A stretch of 63,737 nt of DNA, the filler included, from Collodictyon triciliatum (taxonomy: Eukaryota), in assembly GCA_043381765.1 (NCBI GenBank). It is 6 parts of 6 records of this genome, joined end to end, with 100 filler letters (N's around TTAATTAATTAA, not from the genome) between each part and the next. Parts side by side here need not be neighbours in the genome. Positions count along the whole stretch, not along the records: positions 1 to 30,318 come from JBHJMP010000880.1; 5 more parts are not named here. One strand, written 5' to 3'. The notes below the pieces were generated by a model. The model did not search any database. It worked only from the letters and a program-made list of their open reading frames with translations, and was not told the origin of the DNA. Position numbers and translations under genes: made by a program. Positions 904-27,543 of the stretch are shown piece after piece. Position 1 is the first letter of the stretch; each line of letters opens with the position of its first letter.

Positions 904-3958
<3,055 letters not shown>

Positions 3959-5537
3959 NNNNNNNNNNNNNNNNNNNNNNNNNNNNNNNNNNNNNNNNNN
4001 NNNNNNNNNNNNNNNNNNNNNNNNNNNNNNNNNNNNNNNNNNNNNNNNNNNNNNNNNNNNNNNNNNNNNNNNNNNNNNNNNNNNNNNNNNNNNNNNNNNN
4101 NNNNNNNNNNNNNNNNNNNNNNNNNNNNNNNNNNNNNNNNNNNNNNNNNNNNNNNNNNNNNNNNNNNNNNNNNNNNNNNNNNNNNNNNNNNNNNNNNNNN
4201 NNNNNNNNNNNNNNNNNNNNNNNNNNNNNNNNNNNNNNNNNNNNNNNNNNNNNNNNNNNNNNNNNNNNNNNNNNNNNNNNNNNNNNNNNNNNNNNNNNNN
4301 NNNNNNNNNNNNNNNNNNNNNNNNNNNNNNNNNNNNNNNNNNNNNNNNNNNNNNNNNNNNNNNNNNNNNNNNNNNNNNNNNNNNNNNNNNNNNNNNNNNN
4401 NNNNNNNNNNNNNNNNNNNNNNNNNNNNNNNNNNNNNNNNNNNNNNNNNNNNNNNNNNNNNNNNNNNNNNNNCACCAGTGTCTGGTTTAGGCTGGCACTA
4501 AAATTTCCACAAATATATAAATATTTGTCCAATTCAATAAAAATCATCTATCCTGATGTTCCAGATATATACCAGACCACAGGCTTGATTGTGTTGAGCA
4601 CGACGTTTCGCCAATACACTCATAAACCGCTGTCCAAAAAGCAATGCCGAAATGAATCCGAATCTGTCAAACTCATCAAAAAAAAATTAGGAAGAAAAAA
4701 ATGGCATATGGAAAATACCCATATATAAAGAGCCTGGCGAGATGTATCCACAGAATGGTATTGACACTGTGGGGATGTGCGCCTGATTTCTCGCTGGATC
4801 AGACGTAGATCAAATGGCCAATGCTCAAGCATTTGAGGAGGGAGCGCAGATTGCCTTGCCCACTAATTCCCTCACTCTCATCTACTTGGCCTTGCGGGTA
4901 CTCCGTCTATGCTTCCAGCGTCCTACGCTATATCAATCTGCTTCACGGCAAAGAAACCTCTGCCTGCTTCATATCCACAAGCGAGACTCAAAGTGAGAAA
5001 GGCCGATTCCTTTAGGGCGAATCTACTCACCCGCAGTTTTTCAAACGCAGTGACCCAAGGCACACACGGACTCACACGGACCGCATCCTTGCTGACCTGT
5101 CTGCTCAGTTTGCTCAAGCCGGACAATAGACATAGAGCCCCATAGAGTTTCTCTTACACCGCCCAGCTTGCTTCAAACCCAGCTCAGCACTCGGACCCAA
5201 ACTTCATCGCGTACGAGGACAACTTTTGTAGTTGCACAAGTCTTCTACTGTGCTCCTTTCATCATCATTCGTATTTACATTTTTTATTTTCTATAGCTTT
5301 GGACTCACGATCCCACAAGACAACGATTGTCGAACACACCAGTTTACACTCACCAAATCAACACTTGTTAAAGTTTTCAACCCCACCGTTAGTTCTCCTC
5401 CTTCTCAACGACCCTAATCACACGAATTGTTTTGTGTCAGATGAAGGAATTCCTTCGTATTCCTCCTTTTTTTTTTCTACTATTCCATTTATAAAAACTC
5501 TTTACACGCCTTATAACCCCATTTTCTTCGTCCAACA

Positions 5538-5586: not shown

Positions 5587-7403
5587 ATGTCGGACCATGG
5601 TATCTCCCTCTTTATCCATACACCCACCTACAAACATCGCTTATCTGAGTCTCCTGTTAAGGTTTTCATTCCCTCCTCACCAACACACTCTTATTCACAA
5701 ACGCCCCATTCCTATCAGACACACATCCTGCCCCCTTCGACCTGTGGAAGAAACACCACGCGCTTGAGAAAGCCGCAGCCCATGCCCAGCATTCCGAAAA
5801 TGCGGAACTGGTAAGCCCGGACATGAGCTACTCTCCTCGCACACAAAAGACAAAAAGACAAAAAGACAAAAAGACAAAAAAGGGAAAAAAAGGGAAAAAA
5901 AGGGAAAAAAAGGGAAAAAAAGGGAAAAAAGAAAAAAGAAAAAAGAAAAAAGAAAAAAGAAAAAAAAGAGATATAATACTAACCTACTCTCCACTACAGA
6001 CCCCGGTGAAGCTGACCGACACGACGGAGCTATGGGTCCCGCACGAACTCGCGGTTGCATCCCAGACCATCTGGGAGCGCTACGTTCGCAAGACAGAGAC
6101 CGCCAAAGCCCTTGTGAGCGGCCCCGAGCCAAGCAGCGAAGCCGACGAAGCGCCCGCCGACCGCACGGTGCGCACATGGTTGCACTTTGTGAACGCCGTT
6201 CTGCACCAAACCACATCATCACCATCACCATCACCATCACCATCGCCCACAAACACAAACACCGAGGCAGACACCGCTGCAGACGCAGACGCAGACGCAG
6301 ACGCACTCAAGGTTGCGACGACAACACGACAGTATCTGCTGCGCATCGGCCTGGACGCAGTAGAGCGCGCGCTGCCGCCCGGGACGACGCTTCACGTGGC
6401 GACACGAGGGATGGCGGAAGGGCGGGAGCTGCTGCGGAGCGTCTTTGTCGGACGCGGCGAGCTGCACGGGCCGTGGACGCGCGAGTGGGAGAGCGAGGCC
6501 GGGGCGCTGACCCAGTCATCTACACCATCATTATCATCACCACCATCATCAGCATCACCGCAGACGGGCGGGGCATGCGCCGGGCTGTTTGGCGGGCAGG
6601 GCCAGGGCGGGGCGTGGCTGCAGGAGCTGCGGACGCTGCATGCGACATACCCGGCCGTGCGCGGGCTGATTGCCGAGTGGGCCGGGATTGTTGCGGCGCT
6701 CGCTCAGGCGGAGGACGCAGGCGGGGACGTGTATCGCCACGGCGTGGACGTGCTTGCCTGGATCCGGGATGCGGGCAGCGCGCCGTTCGGCGAGTATCTC
6801 GCGGCCGCGCCGGTCAGCTACCCGTTTGTCGGGGTGACGCAGCTGGCGCACTATGCAAACACGCTGCTGCTTCTCGGCTGCGGCCCGCACACGGCCCCGG
6901 GCTCCTGGCTGCGCGCCGCCGTCGGGCACTCGCAGGGCGTTGTCGCCGCCACAGTTGCCGCCGCCGTCCCGGGCCTCGTGCGCCGCGCGCAGCTGCCGCC
7001 CTGGGCCGCCTTCCAGCGCCTCGCCCGCCACGCTGTCGTCGCCCTCTTCTTCTGCGGCGCACGCGTCCACGCTGCACAGCCCTTCCCGGCCTCCGTCTCT
7101 GCAACCCGCCCCGACATCCTCCGCGAAAGCGAGGCCAACGGCGACCGCCGCCCGTCTCCCATGCTCGCCGTCCTTCAACTCCCGCATGCGGTCCTCGACT
7201 CGTATGTCGCCCGCGTCAACGCCGCCCTCGGCTCCGACCTCACGCGACATCTCCAGATTGCCCTGGTCAACGGGCCCCGCGCCTTTGTCGTCTGCGGCCA
7301 TCCCGAGAGTCTCCACATGCTGGCGCAGCTCCTCCGCGCAAAAGAAGGTTTGTTTACCCTTTATTTAAATCGGTTGATTGCTCAATATATATATTTTGTG
7401 TTT

Positions 7404-7470
<67 letters not shown>

Positions 7471-10400
7471 TTCGTTTGTGATGTAATGGGTGGCTGCTGT
7501 CTAGCTCCTTCCAATGTCGAGATTGACCAGAGTCGCGTTCCGTTCTCAAAGAGAAAAAAGCCGTTCACACTAAAGTACCTCGACGTCTCGGCGCCTTTCC
7601 ACTCTTCAAAGTTTGTGTTGGTTACTCGGAGAATCTATCCATCGCTCAATAATATTTCGTCGACGTGCACCTGTTATCTCTCCCTTTCTGCTACTCTTTC
7701 GCTCCCTGGGATTCAATGGCGCCCATACTGCGACTAATATATGGTTATTGCCCGTTTGTTTTGGGTATCATTAAAAGCGTGTTTATCGTAACGAGCGCTG
7801 CGATTTCTTTTTCATCTCTAGCCTGCTGAGCTCAGTCCCAGCTCGTATCATGGAGGACTTGAAGAAGCATGACGTGGAATTCCTTGCCTCCGACTTGGAA
7901 ATACCTGTTTACTCCACAAAGGATGGTTCGGACTTACGCTCATGCGCTGACCTGACCTCCACACTTATCAGGTTTTTTTCTTTTTTTCCTTTTCCTTTTC
8001 CTTTTCCTTTTCCTTTTCCTTTTCCTTTTCCTTTTCCTTTTCCTTTTCCTTTTCCTTTTCCTTTTCCTTTTCCTTTTCCTTTTTCATTCTACTCTACTCT
8101 ACTCTACTCTACTCTACTCTACTCTACTCTACTCTACTCTACTCTACTCTACTCTACTCTACTCTACTCTACTCTACTCTACTCTACTCTTTTCTTTCCT
8201 TTTCTATTCTACTCTTTTCTTTTCTTTTATTTTCCTTTCTATCAAAGCGAGCTTATTTTCACTGCTTTACAGACTGCAAATTTGCGAGCCCGTCAACTTC
8301 ATCAAATGCATGGAGCCCATCTCAGCAGCCAACGGGTTTACGCACATCATCGACTTCGGTCCGGGTGAAACTAGTGGAGCAGGAAGCATTGTCGCCCGTA
8401 ATATGAACGGCGCTGGAATTCAGGTTAGCTTTATCGACTGTTCATTTAACACCATTTTTCTCACATCAAATAGGTTTTTCTTATTTTTGTTTTCCTGTTC
8501 AATATATTTCAACCACACCAATTTGTAGCTGAATATCCTCACTGTATTTCTTCATAAAACCTTCAGATTGTTTTGGCTGGTTGCTTCTCAGTCCCACCCT
8601 CCCCGAATATAGTTTCCGACAAGTCTGTCCTTTTCGAAAAGAGAAAGGAATTCGTTCCATATGCACCGGTAAGATTCCCTTTCCTCTCCTTCTCTTTATT
8701 TTTAACTTGTGTCACCTATAAAAAAAAGTATCTAAAAACCCTTCCTTCCCTTGAATCGAATAAAGGAAAAAAAACTTGTGTCCCCTTACTTTTGATTTCT
8801 TATGTCCTGTTTCGGCCGTACATTTCATTGGTTGGAAAACAAATAATCAAAACAACTAAGCCAAGTTACCTAATTCATTACATAAATAGAATTGGGCTGT
8901 GGAGTATCAACCGAAACTAGTCAAGCGCGAAGTGGATGGAAAAGTTATACTTGACACCCGTTTCTCTCGCCTAATTGGAAAGCCTCCAATCATGGTTGCT
9001 GGAATGGTACACACGCAAGCACTTACACATCCTCTCACTAGTTTTTATATGCAACCACCATCACAAGCGTATCGAGTCTCGAGTGTAAAGCCAAACAATT
9101 TATAAATATATATTACCTAGACACCCACCACCGTTCATCCACCGCTGATTGCCGCTGTCTTGAATGCTGGATATCACGGTGAATTGGCAGGAGGCGGTCT
9201 CCCAACAGAAAAGGTAGCTACGAACATATTATCTAATTCACAGCCCCCTTTCGATGGAAATAAAAACTCTAAAGTTTCTTAATACAACTCGACGGTTTTT
9301 TCATATCATGATTGTTGTCTAGAATATCAAACCATAGGGACTCTGTGATTGTCATTCATACAATTACATTAAAAATATTTCCATATCAATTATCAGATGT
9401 TTAGAGACCACGTTCATGGCGTTCTTTCTGAGGCAACAGAGGGAAATGGTGTCACGCTCAATCTTCTTTTCCTAAATGCTCGTCTGTGGGGAATGCAAGT
9501 ATGATGAATTACTTTCTAGTATCATCTATTCATTATTCCTTAGGACTCTCATGCGCCCATATATCGTATCCAATGTCGAGTATCTACGTGACTATCCTTG
9601 ATTCCTCATCGATTTCAACTACAGTACCCTCTGATCAAGAAAATGCGGACCGAAGGCATCCCCATAGAGGGACTGACATGCGCGGCCGGTGTCCCATCCA
9701 TCGACAATGCCACTGAAATCCTCACAACATTGAAGGAATCTGGATTACGCCATGTGTCCTTCAAGCCTGGCTCCATTCAGGTCATAATTTTACATCCCAT
9801 TCTCATAGATTGTGTCTACATATAAGAGGAATTTGACTTGGTATTGATTTTTATCCCACATTTTCCTATGATTAACAAATATCCTCAGCCAGTTAAACCT
9901 CAAAGTGCCTTTTTCTTTTCTTATTCATAATAGGCCATTCACGATGTAATCAAAATCGCTGCTGCCAATGCCACAGTCCAAATCATCCTTCAATGGACTG
10001 GTGGGCGTGGAGGTGGTCACCATAGGTATGATGGTATTTACAGTCATCATAAGTATTCTTCTTTCTCTGCTCTTTGTTGCATTCAAATGTTAATGCCCCG
10101 GTACTTTCTCTCAATTACACGGAGTTGTTAACTTCCACAAAAAACCAAACCATTATTAGCTTTGAGGATTTCCATGAACCTATGCTCCAGACGTACAGTG
10201 ATATCAGAAACCAGAAGAATATCGTGCTTGTTGCTGGAAGTGGATTCGGAGACGCCGAAGGCTCCTGGCCATACATGGTACGAATTTTGCTCATATTGAG
10301 TTAAAGTGTAGAAGTCTAGGAACGACACCGTGCACTTATTTTTTTTTAAACATATGTCATGCATATTTGAATCGAATAAAAAGCGAAACAAAACTCAAAT

Positions 10401-12771
10401 GTCATAAATGTACACCAATATACAAACAAACCAAAGGTTCTATCATTTTTTCTGAAGAAAATATTTATTGTCGAATTAAGATTTAATCACCTTTTCTTGT
10501 GGATCTAATATTCGGTATAGTCCGGGCAATGGAGCACACAATACGGCTACCCTCCCATGCCATTTGACGGAATTCTGCTGGGCTCAAGAGTGATGGTTGC
10601 CAAAGAAGCGGCCACTGCAAATGAAGTCAAAGAATTGCTTGTTCAGGTAACAAACGATCGAATGTAACATTTATATATTCTCTAATTCTATTAGTCAGCT
10701 TTCATATGTTTATCTAATATGAGAAACTGTTCTTACTTCCTAATCTCCAAATCGCCCCAAGACTCCTGGAATCAAAACAGACGCTGAATGGGAGCTTAGT
10801 TACGACTCCGTCGCGGGAGGAATCATCACAGTGATGTCTGAGCTCGGAGAACCCATCCATAAGGTTGGAACCCGAGGACTGCTCTTCTGGAGGTTTGTCC
10901 ATAAACCTATTTAGTATACTCTAACAGAAAAATGGAGTCATAACCAAAACTTTAATATGATTGAATTACAATATTTACATGTTATTGAAATCTGACTTTT
11001 TTTTTATCTGTTATCCAGAGAAATGGATAAGGACATCTTCTCTCAGTCAAAGGAAAAGCAGATACAGTTGATATCTGCCAAGAAGGATTACATCATCAAG
11101 AAACTGAACGCTGACTTCCAGAAGGTTTACTTTGGGAAGAGGCGAAATGGTTCTGTTGTCGACTTGCACCAAATGACCTATGAAGATGTGCTCTACAGGC
11201 TTGTTGAGCTGACCTATATTCTCAACACCAAAGTGAATACGCAATACATATTAACAATGAATTACTTTTTTGATTTTTTTTTTATAAAACTCCAAAATCT
11301 GATTCATACCAAACGTTCATAAGGTTGACTTAAGTGAACATACTAACATATTTGCGTTCAGACCAACGAGCGCGTCTGGATTCACAATGACTTTAGGGAT
11401 AGAATATACACATTCGCTGTCCGAATGGAGGAAAGATTTGTCGGCGAAGTAAGTGTATTCCTGGATTACGATGATAATCCAAACCAGAATCGCATTTCTG
11501 ATTTGTTTACTATTCTTATTATTAATAAATGTTTTCCTTCCCTGATTTTTATCATTATTATTACAAAGGTCTTCCTCTCGGATTGGAAAGAGAAAGAGTT
11601 CACAGGAGATGATGAATCTGACAGCCAATTCAAGTAAGATGCATAAAGAAAACAAAGTAAAATATCCACATGCTTGAGTCATGAATTCTTGTTGTATTGA
11701 CAAACATGACAAAAGCACCAACATAACTAATACACGTAGAACCGTTCCAAATTCAGTGNNNNNNNNNNNNNNNNNNNNNNNNNNNNNNNNNNNNNNNNNN
11801 NNNNNNNNNNNNNNNNNNNNNNNNNNNNNNNNNNNNNNNNNNNNNNNNNNNNNNNNNNNNNNNNNNNNNNNNNNNNNNNNNNNNNNNNNNNNNNNNNNNN
11901 NNNNNNNNNNNNNNNNNNNNNNNNNNNNNNNNNNNNNNNNNNNNNNNNNNNNNNNNNNNNNNNNNNNNNNNNNNNNNNNNNNNNNNNNNNNNNNNNNNNN
12001 NNNNNNNNNNNNNNNNNNNNNNNNNNNNNNNNNNNNNNNNNNNNNNNNNNNNNNNNNNNNNNNNNNNNNNNNNNNNNNNNNNNNNNNNNNNNNNNNNNNN
12101 NNNNNNNNNNNNNNNNNNNNNNNNNNNNNNNNNNNNNNNNNNNNNNNNNNNNNNNNNNNNNNNNNNNNNNNNNNNNNNNNNNNNNNNNNNNNNNNNNNNN
12201 NNNNNNNNNNNNNNNNNNNNNNNNNNNNNNNNNNNNNNNNNNNNNNNNNNNNNNNNNNNNNNNNNNNNNNNNNNNNNNNNNNNNNNNNNNNNNNNNNNNN
12301 NNNNNNNNNNNNNNNNNNNNNNNNNNNNNNNNNNNNNNNNNNNNNAAAAAACTGCAACATCGCTGAGGTTTCACATAGACACAAATCAGTATACTATTGA
12401 GCCAGTGTTAAAAACGATATTAAGATAAAAATTGACCGTAGGATTCCCTTTGGTATTCTGAATATTTGGATGCTGTCCCTGAAAGGGATGTTGGGCGCGT
12501 TTGTATCCTGCAAGGGCCCCTTTCTGTTAAATACTCTGTGAAGGCAAATGAACCCGTGGGTGAAATCTTGGACAATATCCACGAAGGCTTCATTCAAAAA
12601 CTCTCTTCTGAGTTGGAGTCAAAGGTAATGTATTTAATTCTAATGAGCGTTGCTTTGAATCAAATTAATATATATGGGATTTTTTTCTAACCAACCTGTA
12701 GAAAGCATATCCACGTTTCTTTCTCGATTTTTTTTAACCTTCACCTATATACCATCGACCAGTCGTGTAAC

Positions 12772-12839
<68 letters not shown>

Positions 12840-15800
12840 AATGGCGGAATTCCGTACCCGAAAACAGGGAAAAGCAGTACCCGAACAAGTTGAGTATCTC
12901 GGGGGAGAGACTCTATTGACCGTGACTGACGAACAATTATCTGAGGCTACGAACGGGAGCATCAAAATCTCGAAAGAGGTAATAGATTGCCGGATACCAC
13001 GTTTGATAATATTCATGCAGTTATTACACATATCCAAAAATAACATCTACGATTTCTTCCTATTTTACTTCCAATCTTCTTTTTACTTGTCTATCTCTGT
13101 CTTTATGCAAATTTCTAGACTAATAAATAGTCTTGTATATATCGAACCTTAGTCATCAAAGGAAACTGAAATTGTTACCGTGGAGCTTCCCTCTGTCGAG
13201 TCGAGTCTTCCAGAGAGTTCTTTGTGGTTCGAATGGCTCTCCGGGCCTTCATACAATTGGTTAGAATCATCATCTTATTAAAGGGGCATCCCGATTTTTA
13301 TTTGCCTTTTATTTTCGAAATATGATGTTTCTCCCCCAAAGACCCAAAGTCCAACCTTGGTGTTTACGTCTCATAGGTGGAGAGCGCTCCTAACTTCAAC
13401 ATCCTTTGTGTATGGAAGATCCCAGAAGGAAAATTTATTGAGCCATGTTTTCCGACCTCGTCCTGGACTTAAGATTGTCCTTAGATACACAACCAGCGGA
13501 ACAAAAAAGTAAGGAATACAAAGTGCCGGTCTAATTGAATGTTTCAGTATTGTCAAAAAAAAGTAATATTATAATACCCTATTTTCTTTTGATATTCGAA
13601 AGGAATAATATACGGTTCATCACATTATCGAAAATTTGATTTTGATGCTTATTTCACCTTCTGCTTTATAGGAATCTACAAAGCGTCGGTATCTTTGAAC
13701 AAAGTTCTACGCATCCAGATAAGCCATCTTTGCAAGTCAATTACAGTCCCTCCAGCGAAGCAGCCTATGCAGGAAAGATTGTGGTGACCATGTTCCATCA
13801 CCGACCTGCTATTGGTGAACGCGCACCCGGCTTGATTCCACTTGACCTGACATATGGCTACAACCCACGACATGGCTACGCACCAATCCACGCAGACATG
13901 GGATACTGGAATCAGAAAGTCAAAGAATTCTATGCACGTCTGTGGTTTGGTGATGAGGTCTGTACATACAACTATCAAGCTCAAAATGCAAATGTATTCG
14001 AATTCTTCTATGAGATAAATCAACTACTGTCTGCTCATACATATTCTCTTTGTATGTACATTGTATAGGATAACACGACTGTCTTTGAAGCGAATCCTCT
14101 CGATGTCATCTTCAAGTCCCAATTCATTGTCAAGAAGGAGGTGCTTTTTGTATTCATAGTTTTCTAAAAATAAGTAAAAAAAAGAAAAATTGAAGAAGAA
14201 ACAACCAGAATTCATTTGGTTATATGTTATCAAATAAGATCAATTGTGGGTGAACTGACCCGATCTGTCAAATTTGTAGGACGTCGACTCATTCAGCCGC
14301 TCTGTCAACCAAATCCTGAGGTTTTTTCTTTTTGGTCTATGACGGCCCTTGCAATTACCTGTCATTCATCAATCATTCTTTGAAAACAGTTTTCTTGTAT
14401 TCCATTTTTTTAAATTGTGTACTATTCACAAAGAAACGAAGATGGAAAAACTATTGCCCCGATGGACTTTGCTATTGTTGTCGCATGGGAGCCCTTAATC
14501 AAATCTTTGTTCCCGAAAACGATTGACGGAGATATTCTTCAGCTCGTCCATCTATCGGTATCACATTTTTTTTTTTAGCTCTTGCTCTTTTAATTTACTT
14601 AATTATTTACTTAATTATATGACTATGAGCACTTAGTTGTTGTTTGCATATCTTCGTTCAAAATGTCGATAGAATGGATTTTCCGCTGTCTCCAAAGCAC
14701 CGAAGGCTGGCCTAATGGCAGTTGGAGACAAAATTAATATTTCTATGAAGATAGTAGAAATAATTAATAACACCAACGAGTTTCTTGGAAAGCGAGTGTC
14801 AGTTGTTGGTCAACTCTCAAGGTAGACTCTGACATGGATATAAACCATTTTTTTTTTTTTTGTTATCAACCTTCATGTTCCTAGGAAGCCAACGACGACA
14901 TATTGATGTAACATTCAAAAACTCACGAATAGGGAAAATGAAGAGCCCTTCATGGAGATCAAAAGTCAATTCCTATTCAGAGGCACGTTTTCTGATTTTG
15001 CAAACTCCTTCCGACGCTCCAAAGAAACAAGAAAGATTGTGCTTGATAAAAAGGTCTTTGAAAAATTTCAAACACATGTTTGTGATACTATGGCGAGAAA
15101 AGAAAGTCAGTATCCGTGGTCAAACACCTCAACAACGCTTTTATTACATTCCTCTATCTTTTTGTTTTATTGACAGGAAAAAATTGAGATATTGAAATCT
15201 AAGCCTTGGTTCTCCTGGATTGGCAGCGAGGCAGATAATATCAAAACTGGAGATAGTTTGATTGTTGATGTTGAGACTCTAGAGTTCTTCCAGGTTCTCA
15301 TTCCTATGATTACTTTTGAAAAGTCAACACGATGCAAATGATTTTCTCTGCTTGGTTACAGCAAACCTAAGTATCATATGCTATTTTACAGGATGACAAT
15401 ACATCTCTCGAGAAAGTCTTCTGCAAAGGCACTGTCCTGAAGGAAAGTGCAATTACATCGGTATCTGCTACTCGTATTGCTGATGTTGAATATAAAGCAG
15501 AGAAAGTTCAGGTAACATTTATTCATACTTTAAAATAAGAGATTTGTAAACTAGATTATACCCCAAACGCCATCGGCTACATGAAAAAAAACAAACAAAC
15601 AAAATGACATTGTAACGTTTTTTTTTTTATCATGATTGCTGCTACACTACCCACTTGATGAACCATCGACAATATAGGGAAATGCTCTGAAGGCTTATCT
15701 TCTGAGAGAGGGCGAGTCTTTACAACCCGCAATCTTTTTGAGAACTGGTGGCTACAGTTTCCCAGCCAAGGTTTTACTTTATATATTTATAATTAAAAGA

Positions 15801-18800
15801 CTGTAGTATCCTTAGCAACTACGTTATGTAAATATGCAGACGATGGAATAAAGCAACGGAGGTTGATATTCGAGTATCTTATACATACCCTTAAATCATA
15901 CAGTCTGACACTGTGACAACTCCACAAAGCAACGTTGCTTATGCCATCGCCTCCCGCGACTTGAATCCAATCCACACCAACCCTTTCATCGCAGACCTTG
16001 CTCGACTCCCTGCAACAATTACGCACGGAATGTGGACCTCAGCAAACGCCAGGCGTGTGGTGGAGATGTATGCCGCAAGAAACAAACCAGAAAGGATTCT
16101 GAGCTATAACGTCGAATTCTCGGATATGGTTAAACCGTCTGACACGCTCTTTACAAAGCTGAAGCACGTAGGAAATCGCGATGGGAAGCTGCTGCTGGAA
16201 GTCGCCACAAAGAATCAAGTCTTTACTCATTTATTATTATATCTAAAAACAAAGCACCGATCAAATCGAAATATACTTTCTTTTATTTCCTTTTCAATTA
16301 AAACATATTTAAAATTGCTGTATAGCTATAGACTTATATACTCACACAATATAATAGAACGGCTCCACCGTGCTTAAGGGCTCTGCGGAAGTTACCGGAC
16401 CTCTGACCGCTTATGTTTTTACTGGGCAGGGTTCGGCCGAAGTAGGAATGGGCATGGATTTGTATGCATCGTCACAGGTCGCAGCTGATGTAATGCTTTT
16501 ATTCTTTAGACGCACATATCCTCCCATCCTTTATGCTTATTTCATCTCTACTTCCTCTTGGTCGTAATGAAAAACGGAAATTCTTCTCCAAGAGATAACT
16601 CCACTCTATATTTTATCAGGTCTGGAACCGTGCTGACAAGTATTTCTTGTCCAACTACGGCATTTCACTGCTCCATATCGTTAAACAAAATCCGAAAGAA
16701 ATCATCATACACTTTGGAGGTACCCAAGGAGAATGCATCCGCAAAAACTACCAAAGCCTAACTCAACAAGTTGTGGTAAAGAGAGATGAACAAATAGTCC
16801 GAGAGACCCGGTCTCTTTTCCCAGATATCAAGGACGAAACTCCAAACTTTACCTTCCGTCACCCTGAGGGACTCCTCTTTGCAACTCAGTTTACACAACC
16901 TCTGCTTACTATAGTCGAATATGCGGCGTTCCAAGACATGCGAGACAAAGGTCTCGTGTCTGACGATTCTATCTTTGCTGGCCACAGTTTAGGCGAGTAT
17001 GCTGGTATTGCCTCGGTCGGAAATGTAAGCACATAGTCTTTGTTAGTTATAGCTATTTCAGATTATTCGTTGAAAAGAATCATAGATTAGCGCTACCTCC
17101 TTTTTTTTTTTTTTTGGAATACTCATGGATATGCGCATGTTTTTACCGATTCTGGGGGATTGAAGGAAATTGTTGAGATGGAGCTAATAATATTCGATTG
17201 TTTAGGTTCTTTCAGTCGAAGACTTGGTTGCGATTTGCTTCCTGAGAGGAATGACGATGCAAAATGCTGTGATTCGCAACGAACAGGGAAGATCACAATA
17301 CGCCATGGTAGCTGCAAACCCGTCTCGTGTGCATCCCCGCTTTAGTGAGCAAATGCTGCAACGTGTCGTCGATTCAATCGCTCAAGCCAGTGGAGAGCTT
17401 CTCCAGGTAATCACACGATAACAAATCGACAACTTTGGGCAACCAGTCACAGCAATAATTACAAATCTAAGTACACGCTAACCATTTTTTCATCAAAATA
17501 GGTCGTCAATTTCAATATCGTTAACTACCAATATGTGGTTGCCGGAGAATTAAGTGCCCTATATGTTTTAGAAAGTGTACTGTCACAAATCAGACAGAGT
17601 AACGCACTACCCAAGGTAGTATTGTCTGGTTGCTGATTTTGTTTTTGTAAAAAAATAAAATAAAAAAAAGCACATTAAACTATATTTAATAGCATGTTGT
17701 TTTCTCCGTTTTTCTTCCCCTTCCCACAACTTAGTAGCTAGTGCTAAACTAGCTCATGTAATGCCACGTACAATACTAGGTGGCAGAAATGGTTCCCGAG
17801 TTCATTCAAAAGGCTATCGCCGAAGCGCGCGACAAGAAGTCAGCTGCCCCCGATGGACTGATAAGGCTAGAGAGAGGGCAAGTCACCATCCCGCTACCGG
17901 GCATTGACGTGCCGTTCCACTCCAGATTCCTGGAAGGAGGAGTGCCACCATTCAGAGAGATTCTGAGAAAGACTATTGATAAGAACCGCATCAACATCAC
18001 CCGAATGACAGGAAGATATATCCCCAATCTCACTGCGAAGCCCTTTGAAGTGACAAAGAGCTATGCCGAAATCATATTCCAGCAGACGAAGAGTCCTGTC
18101 ATGGAGCAGCTAATCGCAAACTGGGAGATGGAATCAAAGGACGTTCAGCAAGTGGCCCATTCGATTATTACTGAACTGCTGGCCTATCAATTCGCCTCAC
18201 CCGTCCGCTGGATCGAAACACAGAACCTGTTCTTCAAGGATTTCAACATCGAGCGCCTAATTGAAGTCGGTCCTGCCCCGACTCTATTCACAATGGCGAA
18301 GAGAACACTTGAAATTGGAGGGTTTTCCCCGTTTGTCACCCGTGACCTTTACTGGTACAACCGCGACCGTGCAGCAATCTATTACGAACAAGCCGACGAA
18401 GAGGAGGAAGAAGAATCGCCCCAACAAACAAGTCAATCTTCAGTCGCACCTATTCAGTCATCCTCTACACCTGCACCTGCAATTGTTGCGGCTCCGCCGA
18501 TTCCTGTTGCTGCCCCCGTCGTCGCTTCTGCTCCTGCCGCTGCCGTTCCTGATGCCCCCGTCACTGCCCTCGAGTTCTTCCAGACTCTCCTAGCCCTGCG
18601 CCTGAAGAAATCTTACAGCGATATCTCCGGAACAAGCACGATAAAGTCTCTTGTTGGAGGAAAATCAGCGCTGCAGAACGAACTCATCGGAGACATTGAA
18701 AAAGAGTTTGGAGCCAGCGTGCCCGAAGGCGCCGCAGATGCATCCATCACATCACTCGCGCAACAAATGGGCCGCAATTACTCGCAACTTGGTAAAGTCA

Positions 18801-21800
18801 GCAGCAATCTTGTCCACAAGCTGATATCGTCAAAGATGCCAGGAGGGTTCTCAATGTCCAAGGTCAAGTCATACTTGGGCTCGACATATGGGTTCGGAGA
18901 GGGAAGAACACAAGGCTTGCTCCTCCATTCCCTTGCACACGAGCCAAGTGCACGTCAGCAAAGCGAAGCCGATGCCCAAGCCTGGCTGGATTCCATGGTA
19001 CAATCCTACGGGTCGCGCTCAGGACAGTCGTTCTCAAAGGGAGGCAGCTCAGCAGCGTCTCCAGCAGCTTCTATGAGTATGCCCCAGGCAGCAGCAGGCC
19101 CTGTCCGGGCATCACCGGGAGGTGCCAATATTCCTGACGCCCCAGTGTCTGCACTGGACTTTTTGAAGGTATTGCTGGCTTTGAAGCTGAAGAAGCCGAT
19201 GAGCTCAATCGACTCGTCAGCTACCATCAAACAACTGGTTGGAGGAAAGTCCGCCCTTCAGAACGAACTTGTTGGGGACATAAGCAAGGAATTCGGATCT
19301 GAACCCGAGGGCGCGGCAGAGATGAACCTTCAGCAGCTGGCATCATCCATAGGTACAAAGTACACAAAGCTTGGTAAATTATCCTCTGGGCTAGTAAGCA
19401 AATTGTTTTCAAGCAAAATGTCATCTGGATTCTCCTTGAGTTCCGCCAAAGGGTACCTTGGACAGCAATATGGCCTGAGAGAAGGCCGCATCGACAGTGT
19501 TCTGTTGTATTCGCTCTCTATGGAGCCAGCCAATCGCTTAGCATCTGACGAAGGCAGCAAATCGTGGTTCGACTCTGTCGTGTCATCTTATGCCTCTTCG
19601 AATGGCTTGAATCTGAGCGGAGATTCTGGTGCTGGCGTATCTGCTCCAGTATCCGTTGCGGTGGGACTTCTATGTTCTATCTAATTTTATGCCATTATAT
19701 TTCTTTTTCCATTTTTTTTTCCAAAGAAATACATAAACTGGGCATGAATTTAATGAGTTTACTTTTATGTCAGTATGCAAATCCTGCCGCTGTCAACGCC
19801 CTCCAACAAAAACAAGAGGCTCTCATCCGCGAAACACTCAAAGCATATTATGAATTTTTGGGCGAAGACCCTATGGCTGGAGAAAGAGCACAGAAGTTGG
19901 AATCGTCTCTTCGTGTTGACTCTGAAAAGGCACTTGCTCTGTGGATTAAAGAGCACGGAGAAGCATATGCAGATGGAATCAAACCTGCTTTTGACTCCAA
20001 CAAGGTTAAATCAATGCCATACAAAACATTTTCCCCCTCAAAATGTCAACAGAAATAAAAAAAAAAGTGATGACATCTGTCGATATTTACATATCACTTT
20101 ATGAATCCATGCTGTTAATTACGAATGGCTCACGGTCTGACATAGGAAAGGAGCTATGATTCCTTCTGGAATTGGACCCGCCAGGATGTGCTAACACTTT
20201 ATTACGACGGATGCACTGGAACACGTCGATGGGGTAATGACATTCGTGAAAGATTGTACCACGTGAAGAATCGCTCCATTCCCCAGTTAGTTGATATGGT
20301 TGAATACTACATTCTGAAGGTAGTATATAATTTTTACAATTTTTAATTTTCTTAAAATCCGTCAAGAACCCTCTCCTTTGAATTCGTATTCTTATTTTGT
20401 GAGAATATACGTATCCAATATAAAAAAACTTTATTTTTTCCTCGTAATTTTGTCATAGTCACAAAAAGATGGCCACGGAGACCTTGTTGAGTTTGCCTCG
20501 ATTCTCGCAAACACAGTCCGGTCAGTCATGCACGAGTTACCCAAATATCGTGTCCACGCTACGCCTTTAGGACCATCTATTTCAATCACTAGCGACGGAG
20601 CCCTCAATTACAAGGAAGTCAAGCGCTCTTCTGTGAAATCATTTGTCGATTATGTCAAGGATTTAAGGGGGAAATCTGTGCCAAAACCCGATGAACCTGC
20701 CTCCAGCCTAACCTCCGAAGAGTTTTCTCTAGTTGAAGCAGCCCTTGCAAGCAGCTCCTTAGATGAATCTGTTCGCGCACTTCTGAAAGAGAAGCTTGGC
20801 AATCTCATGGAGAGGGCTCAAAATGCCGTTGTGTTGCCAGAGGAGCCCAAGGTGACCATCAGGTCTCCTTCAGCGACAGATGGAAGTCATCGAGTTTATG
20901 ACCCTGCCCTTTCGCACATGTTTTTAGATACTATGGAAAAGGTTTGGCTTTCTTGTCATTATTTTTTCTGTTCAAATAAATTTTTAATGTCAGCACGAAT
21001 AGTTATGTGACTATCTCAAAATTCTTTCAAAATATGACCTGATTCATGTTTTTTTTTCCCGTTTGTTGTTGTGCTATTCAATGAGTGTACTTACTACGAA
21101 AATTTTTGATGTAAATTTCATACTTAGGTCGCGGAAAGCGGTGTTACATTCCATGGAAAAGTGGCTCTGATAACTGGATGCGGAAAAGGCTCCATCGGCA
21201 TAGAAATTGTTAAGGTGAATCTAATATGTAATCATGATTTCAGCAACTTTGCTCCTCTTCCTCATTCGACATATGCTACGATTCAATGTGAGTCGTGAAA
21301 AGTCTTTTGAGTTTGTGTATTTGAATCAGTTTATTTTCCTTGTAATTTCATTCATATATCTTTTGCTTATTTATACTTTTATTTGCCTTTTCCTGTTTGG
21401 AATTTTTTTTCTTTTTCGATACGATAGGGACTTTTGATGGGAGGGGCTACTGTTATCGCAACCACATCACGATTCTCACGCAAAGGAGCAGACTTTTATC
21501 GTTCTGTCTTTGACAACCACGGAGCCAAAAATAGTCGACTGATAGTTGTTCCGTTCAACCAAGGAAGTCTCCAAGACGTCAATGCTCTAGTCAATTACAT
21601 CTACGATTCCAAGAGAACACTGGACATCGATTACATCGTGCCTTTTGCGGCTATACCAGAGAATGGGAATGATATCAGCTCCATCGATGGCAAATCAGAG
21701 CTCGCACACAGGATAATGTTGACAAACACTGTCCGATTGCTCGGCGCTGTCCGTTCTAAGAAACAGGAGCTTGGAATCACGACTCGCCCAGCTCATGTTC

Positions 21801-24800
21801 TGCTTCCTCTGTCTCCCAATCATGGCATATTTGGATTTGACGGACTTTACGCCGAGAGTAAAATGGGGCTGGAGGCTCTTCTGAACAAATGGAAGTCCGA
21901 AGGCTGGAAGAACTACCTCAGCTTGGTGGGTGCTGTCATAGGATGGACTCGAGGCACTGGCCTGATGTCCGCTAATAATATGGTCGCCCCTGGAATTGAA
22001 GAGGCTGGAGTGCGAACCTTCTCTACATCTGAAATGTGCTTCAATCTACTGTGTCTGATGCACCCGTCCCTCGTATCTGTTGCCCAAGAGCAGCCAGTGT
22101 GGGCCGACCTCACAGGCGGCCTTCACAAAGTCCACGACCTGAATGCCCTGACAACATCCATCCGACAGAACCTGCTTCAGCAAGCTGCAATCAAAAAGGC
22201 CGTTGCTCGGTGAGTTTAAGAATATCACAAAACGGCACTCCCTTTACAATAAGTTTGTCCGAATAGGCGTGTTTTTTTTTTTTTAAGGTGTCAAAGAAGA
22301 AACTAGAATTCGAAATTTGGTTTAATATTGCAATATACATGAAAAAATCATTTCAATAGGACATAGCTTACTGACCTTGATTATTCTTTGCTTTTTTTTT
22401 TCTTTCAAAAAATGCACAGAGACCGCACACTTGATAAAGAAGTGGAATCAAATCCATCAACCAAAACAGCCAACTCTAGATTCGGTCCTATTCGTGGCCC
22501 TTCCTCCGTCACACCACGCGCAAATGTTTCCGTCCAATTCCCTCCTCTCCCATCAGAGGAAAGGCGGAAAAAGTTGGCTGGCTTAAAGGGAACAGCAGAC
22601 TTGGAAAAGGTACTTCGAAACGTATACATGCATTTTTTATCGTTATTTTATTTGCTTTGCTTTTAAATTAGAATTCCAACAATTATTTTCTTACTTTATA
22701 GATGCTTAAAATTAATCAATAGCTAAATTAAAATAGATTGTCGTTTTGACCGGTTTTGGTGAAATCGGGCCTTGGGGTAATGCACGAACTCGCTGGGAAA
22801 TGGAATCCAAAGGCGAATTCTCATTGGAGGGATGTCTTGAGCTGGCATGGATGCTGGGATTGGTTAAGTACGTAAGTTTGAGCGGGAACAAGAAAGCCTG
22901 GGTTGACGCGAAGACGAACGAGCCTGTCCAGGATTGGGAAATCAAGGTAAGATAAATCGAAGCTCAGTTTTACGTTTCGTATCAATTATATAATGCCTCT
23001 AACTAGCTAAATAGTGAGAGCGTACTCTGCAAGTCATTAATTTATAATTCTCGCCAATCAGGCCAAATACGAAGAAACTATTCTGAAACATTCTGGTATT
23101 CGATTCATCGAGCCTGAATTGTTTGATGGATACGACCCACACAGAAAGATGTTCTTGCATCAGGTATAGCTCATTGTCCCATCTCCGAAGTGTAGATAAT
23201 AAAACCGTGTGCTTCTGAGGTTCAAACTTTCATATATACCCCACATCATGTCTAAATAATGTTATTGCTGCATCGTTTGCTTTGCAGATTGCTCTGAATC
23301 ATACCATGGACCCACTTGAAGTCTCACAAGAGGAGGCTGTCAACTTCCAAAGACAGCACGGAGAAGCTGTGGACACTTTTGAACGAGGTGGCGTCTGGTA
23401 CATCCAACTCAAGAAAGGCAGCGTTCTCTACATCCCCAAGGTGCTTATTCACTTTTGCTATCTCCTGAAGGATTAGGACCATAATATTTATCCAGAAAGT
23501 ACCACAAAACCATTTATTTATCTATTTATATGTATTTATTTATTTTTGTCGCATCAGGCTCTTAGGTTCGATCGATTTGTTGCGGGACAAATCCCAACTG
23601 GCTGGAACCCATCCATTCTTGGTATTCCTGATGACATTATCAACCAGGTCGACCCAGTCACACTTTACACATTGACCTCCATGGCAGAAGCACTGATATC
23701 TTCTGGTGTGTCTGACCCGTATGAGTTTTATGAATACGTACATGTTTCTGAAGTTGGAAATACCATTGGCGGCGGTTTTGGAGGAATGAAGAACCTGCGC
23801 GATACGTATCGCAATCGCTTCCTCGACAGACCTATCAAAGGTACAAAAAGAGAAAAAAAAAACCCTCCCAATAGTTCAAAAAATAATGCGACAGTCTCGT
23901 TCAGCTTATGAATGATTTTCCTTTTCTTTTTCGAAGGCGACACGTTGCAGGAGACATTTATCAATACAGTTCCTGCATGGATTAACATGCTGCTTCTCAG
24001 TGGAAGTGGCCCTGTCAAGACACCTGTTGGTGCGTGCGCCACTGCCGTAGAGTCTGTAGAGGTCAGTTTCGCGATAAATACTTAATTTAATTAGGTATAT
24101 TTTTCATTTGTTGCTGATTTAAAGCTAGGTTAATTTATGGGTTTGGGCTGATGTATAGTATTATTCCCTCTCTCGTGTTTAGATTGGATTTGACACTATT
24201 ATGACGGGCCGTGCAAAGATATGTATTGTCGGCGGCTACGACGATTTTGGAGAGGAAGGCTCATATGAATTTGCCCAGATGAAGGCTACCAGTAACTCTG
24301 TCAGTGAAATTGCAGCCGGACGTGAGCCAAGTGAAATGTCTCGCCCAACCACAGACACTCGCTCAGGTTTCATGGAGGCACAAGGTGCAGGTGTTCAGGT
24401 AGATATAATTATTTCGATTTAATGGATATCATGTTGATTTCTCTCAACCTTGGTCGCTTGGCTTTCGTAACCTTGTAAATTGTGGAAACATTCAGAATAG
24501 AGTGCATTCAATTCTATAAATTGATATTATCTTGCAATAACATCTGAATAATCGATAGATTCTGATGACTGCGGCTATGGCCGTCGCTATGGGTGTTCCC
24601 ATATATGCTATCGTCGCACATGTTAGCACAGCCACAGACAAGGAAGGCAGAAGTGTCCCTGCTCCCGGGACAGGTTCGATCATTAAATAAATTTTACTTT
24701 GGTTCCTTTTGATGCGAATTACTGGGAAAAATTTAATAGAAAAATCATGAGATGGTTTGTTCAATTCCATATGAAAAGGCCCTGATGATGAATTTGATAT

Positions 24801-27543
24801 AATGAAATAAAAAATCGTGCAGGAATATTGACTACTGCTAGAGAGGTGAAAACACGGTTTGAGAACCCATTGATGAAGTTTGATTACAGACAGAAACAGC
24901 TGCGAAAGGAGCTTGTTAGAGTTGAACGATGGGAACAAGAAGAAAAAGAAGCCATGGAAGAGGAATTGCTGGTAATTTGTACAATCATGCGATTATCCTT
25001 TAATTTTTGTAGCATATTTCTATCTCTTTTTTTTTTTTTTTAATTCTGTGTGTGCCTATATCCAGTTGGGATGCTTTAGACAATATATATAGGATAAAAT
25101 ACAAACCGTTTGGCACTCTCTAAATGAATTCCTTTTATTCATTAATTATTGTGTTGATAGACACTTTTGGATTCTGGAGCAGTTTCTGAATCTGAGAGGG
25201 ATGTCTGGAGGAAGGAAAGGGCTGAATTGCTGGAGAGAGAGGTTCACAAGCTGAATAAGAGAGCCTACAGCGTTTGGTCGAATGAATTCTTCAAGAATGA
25301 TCCAACCATCGCCCCGCTTCGTGGTGCTCTCGCTGTTTACAACCTCACTGTCGATGACATCGGGGCAGCGTCTTTCCATGGAACCAGCACAAAGGCTAAT
25401 GATAAGAATGAATGTTTTGTCCTCCAACGCCAGCTTGAACATCTGGGACGCTCCAAAGGAAATGTCATTCTCACCATCTTCCAAAAGTATCTTACCGGTC
25501 ATCCTAAGGTGAGCACGTTTTCATTTTTTTTTTTTTAACAAACGAGAGGCATTTTGCACTCTATTAAATTTACATGAAATCTACTGCAGGGTGCTGCTGG
25601 CTCTTGGATGCTAAATGGCCTTGTTCAATCGATGCTTTCGGGCATTGTCCCCGGAAATCGCAATGCAGACAACATCGACCCTGAACTCCGCAAATACGAC
25701 CAGATTGTCTTCCTGAACAGATCTTTGCGAACTTATGGGTGAGTCTATTACCATCGTTCATGAACCAGTCGTACGCATGCTATTTACGCGATGTTGAATT
25801 CTGAATGTAATTGTATTTATAGCTACGAAGCTGGTATTCTCAAGAGCTTTGGTTTCGGTCAAGTTGGTTCTGAGGTTCTCATCATTCATCCTGACTTTGT
25901 CTTGGCCCAGCTTGATGACGCCGCACTCGCGCGATATACAAAGCTCAGAGACCGGTAAATCAAGCTTTTGTGAACGAATAGAAATTTCATGATTGTTTTT
26001 TTTTTCTAAAAAAAAAAAAAAAGATAACTGTCAATGGCTGGACTCTTGTGTGCCCAAGACATGAAACAAGATAGACAGAAGAGAATCTTTTTTTTATTTT
26101 TATTTTATTGAAATCGATCTCTTATTTATTAATTTTGCTTGTAGTCGACTGGAAATAGCTTATAGCCACTGGCAGTCAGCACTTACCGGCAAAGGAAAGT
26201 ATGTGCGTGTGAAAACTGAGCCTCCGTACAGTTCTGACATCGAATCAAGGTAGGCAAGAATAGAATTTGCATATGAGAGTATGTGAACTGCGACTCGAAT
26301 ATGTTTTTATCAATTAGTTGCAGATATTGAAAAGGCATTCATGATAAACAGTGTGTATCTCAATCCAACCGCCCGCGCATCCTTTGACGGGAAGAAAGGC
26401 TCATGGGCTTTCAAGCTGGCAGGAAAAGAGTCTGGAAAGAAGTACACAACAGCTCCGGTACAAGAAGATGAGCTTGGTCCGTTGGCACCTATGCAGCCAT
26501 CTCGTCCAGCCAAAGTTCTTTTTCCATATTTTTTTATTATTACATACAAATAAGTTAATATTATCAAGAGGCAGCCGCATCCTACTCACAAGGCGCACAG
26601 CGGTTGCCGCAAAATTTTATTGACTCTATCATCTTTTACACAGTCTGCAGCAATGCCTCGGGTTTCTTCCTCTGCAAACTTGACAGTCACACTGCGAGAA
26701 ATGGCCGAAAAGCAAAGACTTCCATCAGATAAAGTGATTGCATCTGCTATTTTTCTGGAAGTGCATCTCGATGAAAAACTTTGTGTTTTCTTAATTTCAA
26801 ACTTGTTTGGTGGCTTGAATAATGATTTAATCAACATACGAAGCCATTCTGTTGATGTACGCTATTCTAAATAACTCGCTAATTGCAGGGAATCGGGGTT
26901 GATGCACAATCCATCTCAGACATTGATGTTAGTATAAACAACGACGAGTTTGTCCGTCGCAACTTTACCCCTGCTGAAATAGCACATTGTCGCGCCTCTC
27001 AGGTTTGCTATTTTTCACGTTTTTTTCACTATTTTTTTATTTTACTCTTTTATTTTTGTTGGCTACCTTTTTTTTTTTTGGGTGTAATCATAGCATCACT
27101 CTTGTTAATGTTGGTTTACACAACGACAAATATCAGGACCCGTCAAGCAGCTTTGCTGGGCGCTGGGCTGCTAAAGAAGCTGTGGTGAAGGCCATGTCAA
27201 ACACCGATGTGAACCGCCGCTCAACCAACCTCTGGCGCGGAGGCGGCGCGCCTTTGAAGGATATTGAGATTGTTGCGTCGGCATCTGGCGCGCCTTCTGT
27301 TCTTCTTCACGGGTGCGTCAACTTTGTGCATTTTTCTCTAGCTTCTATCGCGAAGCGTGTCGCATCATACAACCAAAGGCCCAAACCCATGAAAATAACT
27401 CATCCACCTAATTCTCTATTTTTCACCTTCTTTCTTTCAATAGCTATGCTCTTGAGGTTGCTACAGCCCTCGGCATTACGGACGTCAAGGTTACCATCTC
27501 TCACAGCGGAGACTACGCTATTGCACAGGCGGTCGCTCGCTAA
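5587..27543 (+). CDS. Single-chain fungal-type type I fatty acid synthase (Fas1+Fas2 fused): AT-ER-DH-MPT-ACP-ACP-KR-KS-PPT, ~60 exons, roughly 4,200+ aa by hand-summed exons
   Basis: Hand-spliced in-phase GT-AG exons from ATG 5587 (MSDHDTHPAPF...) to TAA 27541-27543. [104 protein letters not shown]: two [93 protein letters not shown]. One N gap (11759-12345) falls inside the ER. Confidence 0.96.
7985..8190. repeat. Intronic compound microsatellite (CCTTTT)n(CTACT)n
   Basis: Seen directly inside a FAS intron. Confidence 0.95.
18545..19030 (+). other. FAS ACP domain 1 (phosphopantetheine Ser at 18665-18667)
   Basis: [22 protein letters not shown]...[25 protein letters not shown]...SSKMPGGF; matches fungal ACP GGKSTLQNE consensus. 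Confidence 0.9.
19130..19615 (+). other. FAS ACP domain 2 (phosphopantetheine Ser at 19250-19252)
   Basis: [22 protein letters not shown]...[25 protein letters not shown]...SSKMSSGF; colinear paralogue of ACP1. Confidence 0.9.

Follow-up and report, generated by a model that had tools for sequence, protein, structure and literature searches.

Fungal-type fatty acid synthase (FAS) occurs in several gene layouts. In fungi, three types of split are distinguished, and the split forms are regarded as derived from a single-gene precursor (PMC6972935). The single-gene FAS of the Ustilaginomycetes type (Ustilago maydis, Coprinopsis, Laccaria; PMC6972935) is one chain ending in a phosphopantetheinyl transferase (PPT), and the single chains of chytrids, mucoromycetes and zoopagomycetes likewise carry all domains and end in a PPT. 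FAS of Rhodotorula toruloides (PMC13705844, PMC12014800) combines tandem acyl carrier proteins (ACPs) with an intrinsic PPT, but is split after the enoyl reductase (ER) region. Fungal-like cytosolic FAS I has also been published outside fungi. Cyanophora paradoxa and Paulinella have the fungal type and Euglena gracilis has a FAS I (PMC11714747), while diplonemids have FAS I candidates (PMC7052976). Finally, CMN-type bacterial FAS-I (Mycobacterium; PDB 6gjc, 4v8v) is a single chain with homologous domains in homologous order, about 3,070 aa long and lacking the PPT (PMC12014800). Here, we describe a FAS gene from a stretch of 63,737 nucleotides of Collodictyon triciliatum (assembly GCA_043381765.1), hereafter the window, in which it occupies positions 5587-27543. 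We are highly confident that this is a fungal-type FAS of a diphylleid (CRuMs), spliced and expressed, which likely yields a single polypeptide of about 4,290 residues and likely descends vertically from the ancestor shared by Diphylleia and Rigifila.

The closest counterparts are proteins of Diphylleia and Rigifila, which share with the window FAS the domain order, two ACPs, the C-terminal PPT and one clade. These are known here from transcripts alone, whereas the window provides a genomic locus with introns from a different species and probably a different genus. Compared with the single-gene fungal FAS, the window sequence lies outside the fungal clade and its ACPs are 55% alike, as against 60-89% in fungal pairs (six measured). 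The ACP pair of Rhodotorula, 75% alike, is a separate or homogenised duplication. The protist FAS listed above belong to other tree branches, and the Cyanophora copy that we fetched has one ACP. The traits of the CMN type (about 3,000 aa, a separate PPT gene, no introns) are likewise not those of the window FAS, which has about 4,290 aa, a fused PPT and at least 59 introns. Among the open-literature matches listed, no paper reported a FAS in CRuMs, Diphylleia, Rigifila or Collodictyon.

The gene model was built by spliced protein-to-DNA alignment with an aligner written for the purpose, using as templates Rigifila, Diplonema, one further protein and, as the fourth, Diphylleia. It comprises 61 visible exons on the + strand, 19 on the 5' side of an assembly gap and 42 on its 3' side. 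All 59 visible introns have GT..AG ends and are 81-301 nt long (median 133 nt). The two coding parts contain 1,094 and 3,126 codons (4,220 visible) without a single internal stop, and a TAA stop codon is located at 27541-27543. With about 68 codons expected in the gap, the predicted length is about 4,290 aa. The start of the model, with its ATG at 5587 and a first exon of 13 nt, was placed by eye and is inferred. The features of the gene are as follows:

5587..27543, + strand: whole FAS gene (spliced model; 76% identity to the D. rotans protein P0252 over 4,187 aligned residues)
5587..5810, + strand: inferred start, exons 5587-5599 and 5719-5810 (GT-AG intron, N-terminal likeness to P0252)
6000..7347, + strand: long exon, 69% GC, encoding the larger part of the acetyltransferase (AT); GHSQG at 6924 (spliced model)
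8890..12624, + strand: ER, approximate bounds; GGHH at 10009 (model, RNA joints)
11759..12345, no strand: assembly gap of 587 N, where about 68 codons for the ER helical region are expected (P0252 residues ~1134-1207 fall here)
13672..13957, + strand: exon holding the Rhodotorula-type split site (~13700), read through (crossed by RNA contigs of runs X1 and X2)
15904..16218, + strand: dehydratase (DH, MaoC-like) exon; NPIH at 15964 (Pfam, model)
16358..18300, + strand: malonyl/palmitoyl transferase (MPT), approximate bounds; GHSLG at 16980; ascomycete split site at ~18128 read through (X6 contig over 18034-18421)
18551..19048, + strand: ACP 1; GGKS attachment serine, motif start 18656 (Pfam, model)
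19136..19630, + strand: ACP 2; GGKS attachment serine, motif start 19241; 55-57% identical to ACP 1 (Pfam, model)
20146..20319, + strand: exon holding the Tremellomycete-type split site (~20254-20272), read through (split-site mapping)
21128..22209, + strand: ketoreductase (KR); nucleotide-binding motif at 21176, YAESK at 21848 (model)
22737..25954, + strand: ketosynthase (KS), approximate bounds; Cys motif at 24029, His motifs at 25374 and 25494 (Pfam, model)
26889..27543, + strand: AcpS-type PPT and stop (Pfam ACPS; RNA joints to KS exons; 89% identical to the D. rotans PPT)

The domain order derived from motifs is thus AT-ER-DH-MPT-ACP-ACP-KR-KS-PPT, collinear with P0252. All 14 motifs searched for were present in the model in the expected order, covering AT, ER, DH, MPT, the ACP serine, KR and the Cys-His-His of KS; the motif residues are those which we take to be catalytic. 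When single exons were compared with Pfam, MaoC, two Fas_alpha_ACP stretches, KS-C and ACPS were recovered, and two exons matched no family. The large helical ACP (PF18325) was matched in two stretches (E 8e-107), and the AcpS-type PPT (PF01648) closes the chain.

Each of the three known fungal split sites lies within an exon that is open. In a PDB search with the open frame 17780-19681, residues 12-117 aligned with 1943-2047 of yeast Fas1, at the end of its 2051 residues, and residues 122-443 with 6-322 of yeast Fas2, at its start. As the two adjoin in one open frame, the yeast split is read through. An earlier note, made from the sequence alone, had proposed a complete chain of about 4,200 aa that crosses the yeast split in one exon, has no stop in about 60 spliced exons and ends in an AcpS-type PPT. 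The peptide it quoted at the split does lie in this frame, the exons are open throughout and the terminal PPT was recovered in the last exons. Completeness is very likely as well; the length is nearer to 4,290 aa, and the tandem arrangement of two Fas_alpha_ACP domains had been missed.

The gene is spliced and expressed. Twenty-four RNA runs were listed, 20 of them containing part of the window at word shares of at most 0.20, and five were aligned to the gene. Spliced contigs were obtained from four public runs, namely three freshwater metatranscriptomes (X1-X3) and one other (X6); the label of the host as a freshwater protist derives from the aligned X1-X3 contigs, the small word shares not being used for habitat. 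Introns are skipped in these contigs, and all RNA joints among those listed (22 of 22) coincide with introns of the model. Identity is mostly 95-100%, with a few contigs at 90-95%.

Two very long exons (6000-7347 and 17780-19660) stand out in an otherwise fragmented gene with a median exon length of 126 nt. In the part behind the gap, an exon of at least 1,869 nt has P = 0.004 under random intron placement, and the placement of its donor (19636-19660) is uncertain by up to eight linker residues. The GC-rich exon 6000-7347 carries simple-repeat inserts. Open frames above 1,000 aa are also found in the acetyl-CoA carboxylase (ACC) gene of the same genome, so that long exons are not unique to FAS.

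The closest named homologues are those of Diphylleia rotans (EP00002_P033397, 4,343 aa, 76% identity) and Rigifila ramosa (EP00004_P027694, 4,296 aa, 56%). For the tree, 41 of 71 collected rows were used, leaving out sequences that were near-duplicates or partial as well as three fragments from Dikarya, and 1,852 columns from ER, DH-MPT, KR and KS were analysed under LG+C20+F+G4 with posterior mean site frequencies. The window FAS joined Diphylleia with a support of 100 in the SH-like approximate likelihood ratio test (SH-aLRT), and both joined Rigifila with 99. The sister of this CRuMs clade consists of five sequences (support 100), one of them from a locust assembly. When the CRuMs clade was moved to 30 selected branches, one placement survived the approximately unbiased (AU) test, i.e. 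that as sister of the five-sequence clade. That two CRuMs orders share this FAS shows that the enzyme type has a long history in the group and a source other than fungi. As for the long residence inferred in the earlier note, it is borne out by the Diphylleia and Rigifila orthologues, while the intron count on which it was based dates nothing.

The locust sequence in this CRuMs sister clade, a two-ACP FAS of 4,348 aa (P0283) annotated in the assembly of Schistocerca gregaria, is probably a protist contaminant. Four metagenome loci of this intronless sister clade have flanks too short for a host call. A root placed by FastTree among partial Dikarya sequences was dropped as an effect of long branches and missing data.

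How the CRuMs ancestor itself obtained the gene is less settled, and we give somewhat less than an even chance to its lateral gain from another protist lineage or a bacterium instead of descent from a deeper eukaryote ancestor. The gene tree is discordant with the species tree: CRuMs and their sister clade stand apart from opisthokonts, bacteria group with Cyanophora, and Euglenozoa and Copromyxa (dictyostelid) group with fungi and Chromosphaera. The position of Euglenozoa and Copromyxa suggests eukaryote-to-eukaryote transfers or hidden paralogy. When the root is placed on the bacterial group, however, CRuMs and their sister clade become the sister of the opisthokont-rich clade, as vertical descent would predict; among species, the CRuMs branch stands beside the group of animals, fungi and amoebae. 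Moreover, a lateral gain of this kind concerns the deep origin only and is compatible with vertical inheritance within CRuMs, i.e. with the explanation preferred here.

The bacterial relatives were examined in a GTDB scan that returned 17 loci, 12 of which contained shorter forms or fragments, the full ones among them being about 3,000-3,300 aa long with a weak single ACP. In three loci from UBA10199-like Deltaproteobacteria metagenome-assembled genomes (MAGs), the FAS has two ACPs and shares 43-49% identity with the window protein:

L019:124-17901: bacterial two-ACP FAS locus
L017:2-8482: bacterial two-ACP FAS locus
L021: bacterial two-ACP FAS locus

The two-ACP bacterial type recurs, since the P0276 cluster has 13 members; L020 represents a one-ACP form. 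A separate acpS-type gene lies directly downstream of FAS in L017, L019 and L020, where its identity to the window PPT is 61%, 55% and 46%, respectively; the L021 contig ends before this position. In L019, an ACC-like gene (ACC_central) lies directly upstream, with bacterial sugar-nucleotide genes nearby. In the free tree, four large bacterial forms nested beside Cyanophora (94). A transfer from eukaryotes to bacteria, which such nesting would imply, is not established, as the tree with all nine bacterial rows in one clade was slightly better (lnL -77857.3 versus -77862.8 nested; AU 0.68 versus 0.33, 2,000 replicates). Of 69 branches, 26 were tested as root positions and 11 were kept, the best three lying on the bacterial group.

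From this, a scenario can be proposed that we regard as unlikely: fungal-type FAS might have been acquired early by eukaryotes, at or before the ancestor of CRuMs and Amorphea, from uncultured, deltaproteobacteria-like bacteria of the UBA10199 kind, with the adjacent acpS gene being fused to the chain in eukaryotes. The starting form would have been a full-size two-ACP FAS in an ACC-FAS-acpS block, retained by UBA10199 and kin. If so, FAS would be no fungal invention, and CRuMs would have kept, in a gene with an old ACP pair, a relic of that early stage. With full-size bacterial look-alikes at hand, both the origin of fungal-type FAS and the timing of PPT fusion can be tested by a larger tree.

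Two other bacterial loci deserve mention. In L020:1-17628 (Myxococcota), the FAS has 6,086 aa (P0369), of which about 2,000 form an extension at the N terminus without Pfam match. L018, a MAG chromosome labelled Lapillicoccus, contains head-to-head Fas1-like and Fas2-like frames with a split at the ascomycete site and an intron-like frame break; this looks like fungal DNA in the assembly.

Returning to the window gene as a diphylleid FAS on one chain, the following points weigh against it: i) no RNA or DNA contig bridges the whole gap, and about 26 codons are seen on no molecule; ii) the length of the N run may be an estimate, and the run could hold a short intergenic stretch; iii) the first three exons are not covered by RNA contigs; iv) the RNA comes from environmental runs and one other public run and not from the sequenced individual; and v) the tree results from a short search with SH-aLRT as its sole support, without bootstrap. 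As for the missing exon, two protein searches for it elsewhere in the same assembly returned only the known flank or a 27% chance match with stops. Four RNA runs inspected over 8230-12770 gave no cover at 11574-12333, an absence that is uninformative.

An unbridged gap leaves room for a FAS made from two genes, newly split within the ER helical region, and fungal FAS was split at three different sites (PMC6972935). We nevertheless consider such a split very unlikely, since none of the three known ones maps to the gap and the chain enters it from both sides. About 74 D. rotans residues fall between the flanking exons, seven of which are visible on the 5' side, where an exon runs into the N run. 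On the 3' side, a spliced X6 contig of 693 nt continues for 124 nt beyond the 5' end of the first exon after the gap; the 10 codons just before that exon, read by hand, are in frame, with 7/10 D. rotans identities. Furthermore, the transcriptome proteins of D. rotans and Rigifila ramosa are continuous single chains, collinear across the gap. FAS is therefore very likely one chain.

Transfer of the gene from a fungus, or a fungal origin of the contig, is scarcely credible: although many database matches are fungal, and the grouping of Copromyxa and Euglenozoa with fungi shows that such transfers may have occurred in the FAS family, every position tested for the CRuMs clade within fungi or beside them was rejected (delta lnL >390), and the last exon of cytosolic HSP90 from the same assembly is closest to Diphylleia among named matches (84% to D. 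rotans and 92% to a JGI protein, with at most 73% to other named full-coverage matches). Independently of FAS, HSP90 thus points to a diphylleid host other than D. rotans itself. The nesting within a fungal group that the earlier note had named as refutation did not occur in the clade test either, and its view of a self-activating fungal-type FAS from a poorly sampled lineage agrees with the non-fungal CRuMs position. The rarity which it implied for the fused form was not supported. Of 129 fetched proteins above 3,500 aa (redundant cluster members and bacteria included), 83 matched strict patterns for AT, KS-Cys and C-terminal PPT motifs. Named examples of fused FAS and PPT came from chytrids, Mucoromycota, Zoopagomycota, Blastocladiomycota and oomycetes, and further ones from Euglena, diplonemids, Cyanophora, Copromyxa and Chromosphaera. 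Among the search results, a single chain with PPT is common outside Dikarya, and the architecture is already known. Among 100 viral pattern matches, none held up as a homologue. The gene thus adds a deep and little-studied eukaryote lineage to the FAS family tree; its value is that of a data point, unlikely to surprise a specialist.

The presumed function follows that of fungal FAS. Six chains would assemble into a barrel, and the C-terminal PPT would load phosphopantetheine onto both ACP serines. Acetyl would be introduced by AT as the primer, and malonyl, supplied by ACC, would be loaded by MPT, after which KS, KR, DH and ER would cycle to C16-C18. As no thioesterase domain was seen, MPT would be expected to release the product as acyl-CoA. 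The barrel, self-phosphopantetheinylation, iterative C16-C18 synthesis and acyl-CoA release are taken over from fungal FAS, as described in part in PMC12014800. A eukaryote-type ACC (ACC_central) is encoded in the same genome on another contig. In a search of the assembly for other KS genes, PF00109 gave five weak matches; as the same search missed the KS of FAS itself, it does not speak against a further type I synthase. One contig (C2951) carries an intron-containing FabF-like type II ketosynthase, which is probably mitochondrial; two other contigs contained no clear KS frame on the + strand.

Of 120 long proteins, counting the window FAS, 54 had two ACPs. In an ACP tree of 51 rows, the carrier domains of the three CRuMs proteins clustered by position, ACP1 with ACP1 (96/87) and ACP2 with ACP2 (100/96), and the duplication in CRuMs is therefore old; ACP1 also grouped with the CRuMs sister clade (97/90). 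By comparison, five of the six fungal pairs paired by species. The attachment serine is retained in both CRuMs ACPs. In R. toruloides, either ACP suffices and the two are redundant (PMC13705844). By analogy, the two ACPs of the window FAS probably work in parallel, and their deeper divergence may leave room for specialisation. An intact and deeply diverged pair of this kind offers a natural test of tandem-ACP specialisation.

Elsewhere in the assembly, positions 1-1084 of contig C12372 represent a second copy of 21839-22922, with exons 97.5% identical (728/747) and introns 88% identical (288/327). This copy is likely an allele, a recent paralogue being the alternative. Gene pieces upstream of FAS (1603-4500, + strand) resemble a nucleotide-sugar transporter, and the one piece scanned had no Pfam match. 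Downstream, an intact frame of 612 codons with a DDE_1 transposase domain (E 1.6e-22) lies on the - strand at 27862-29697, ending about 320 nt past the FAS stop.

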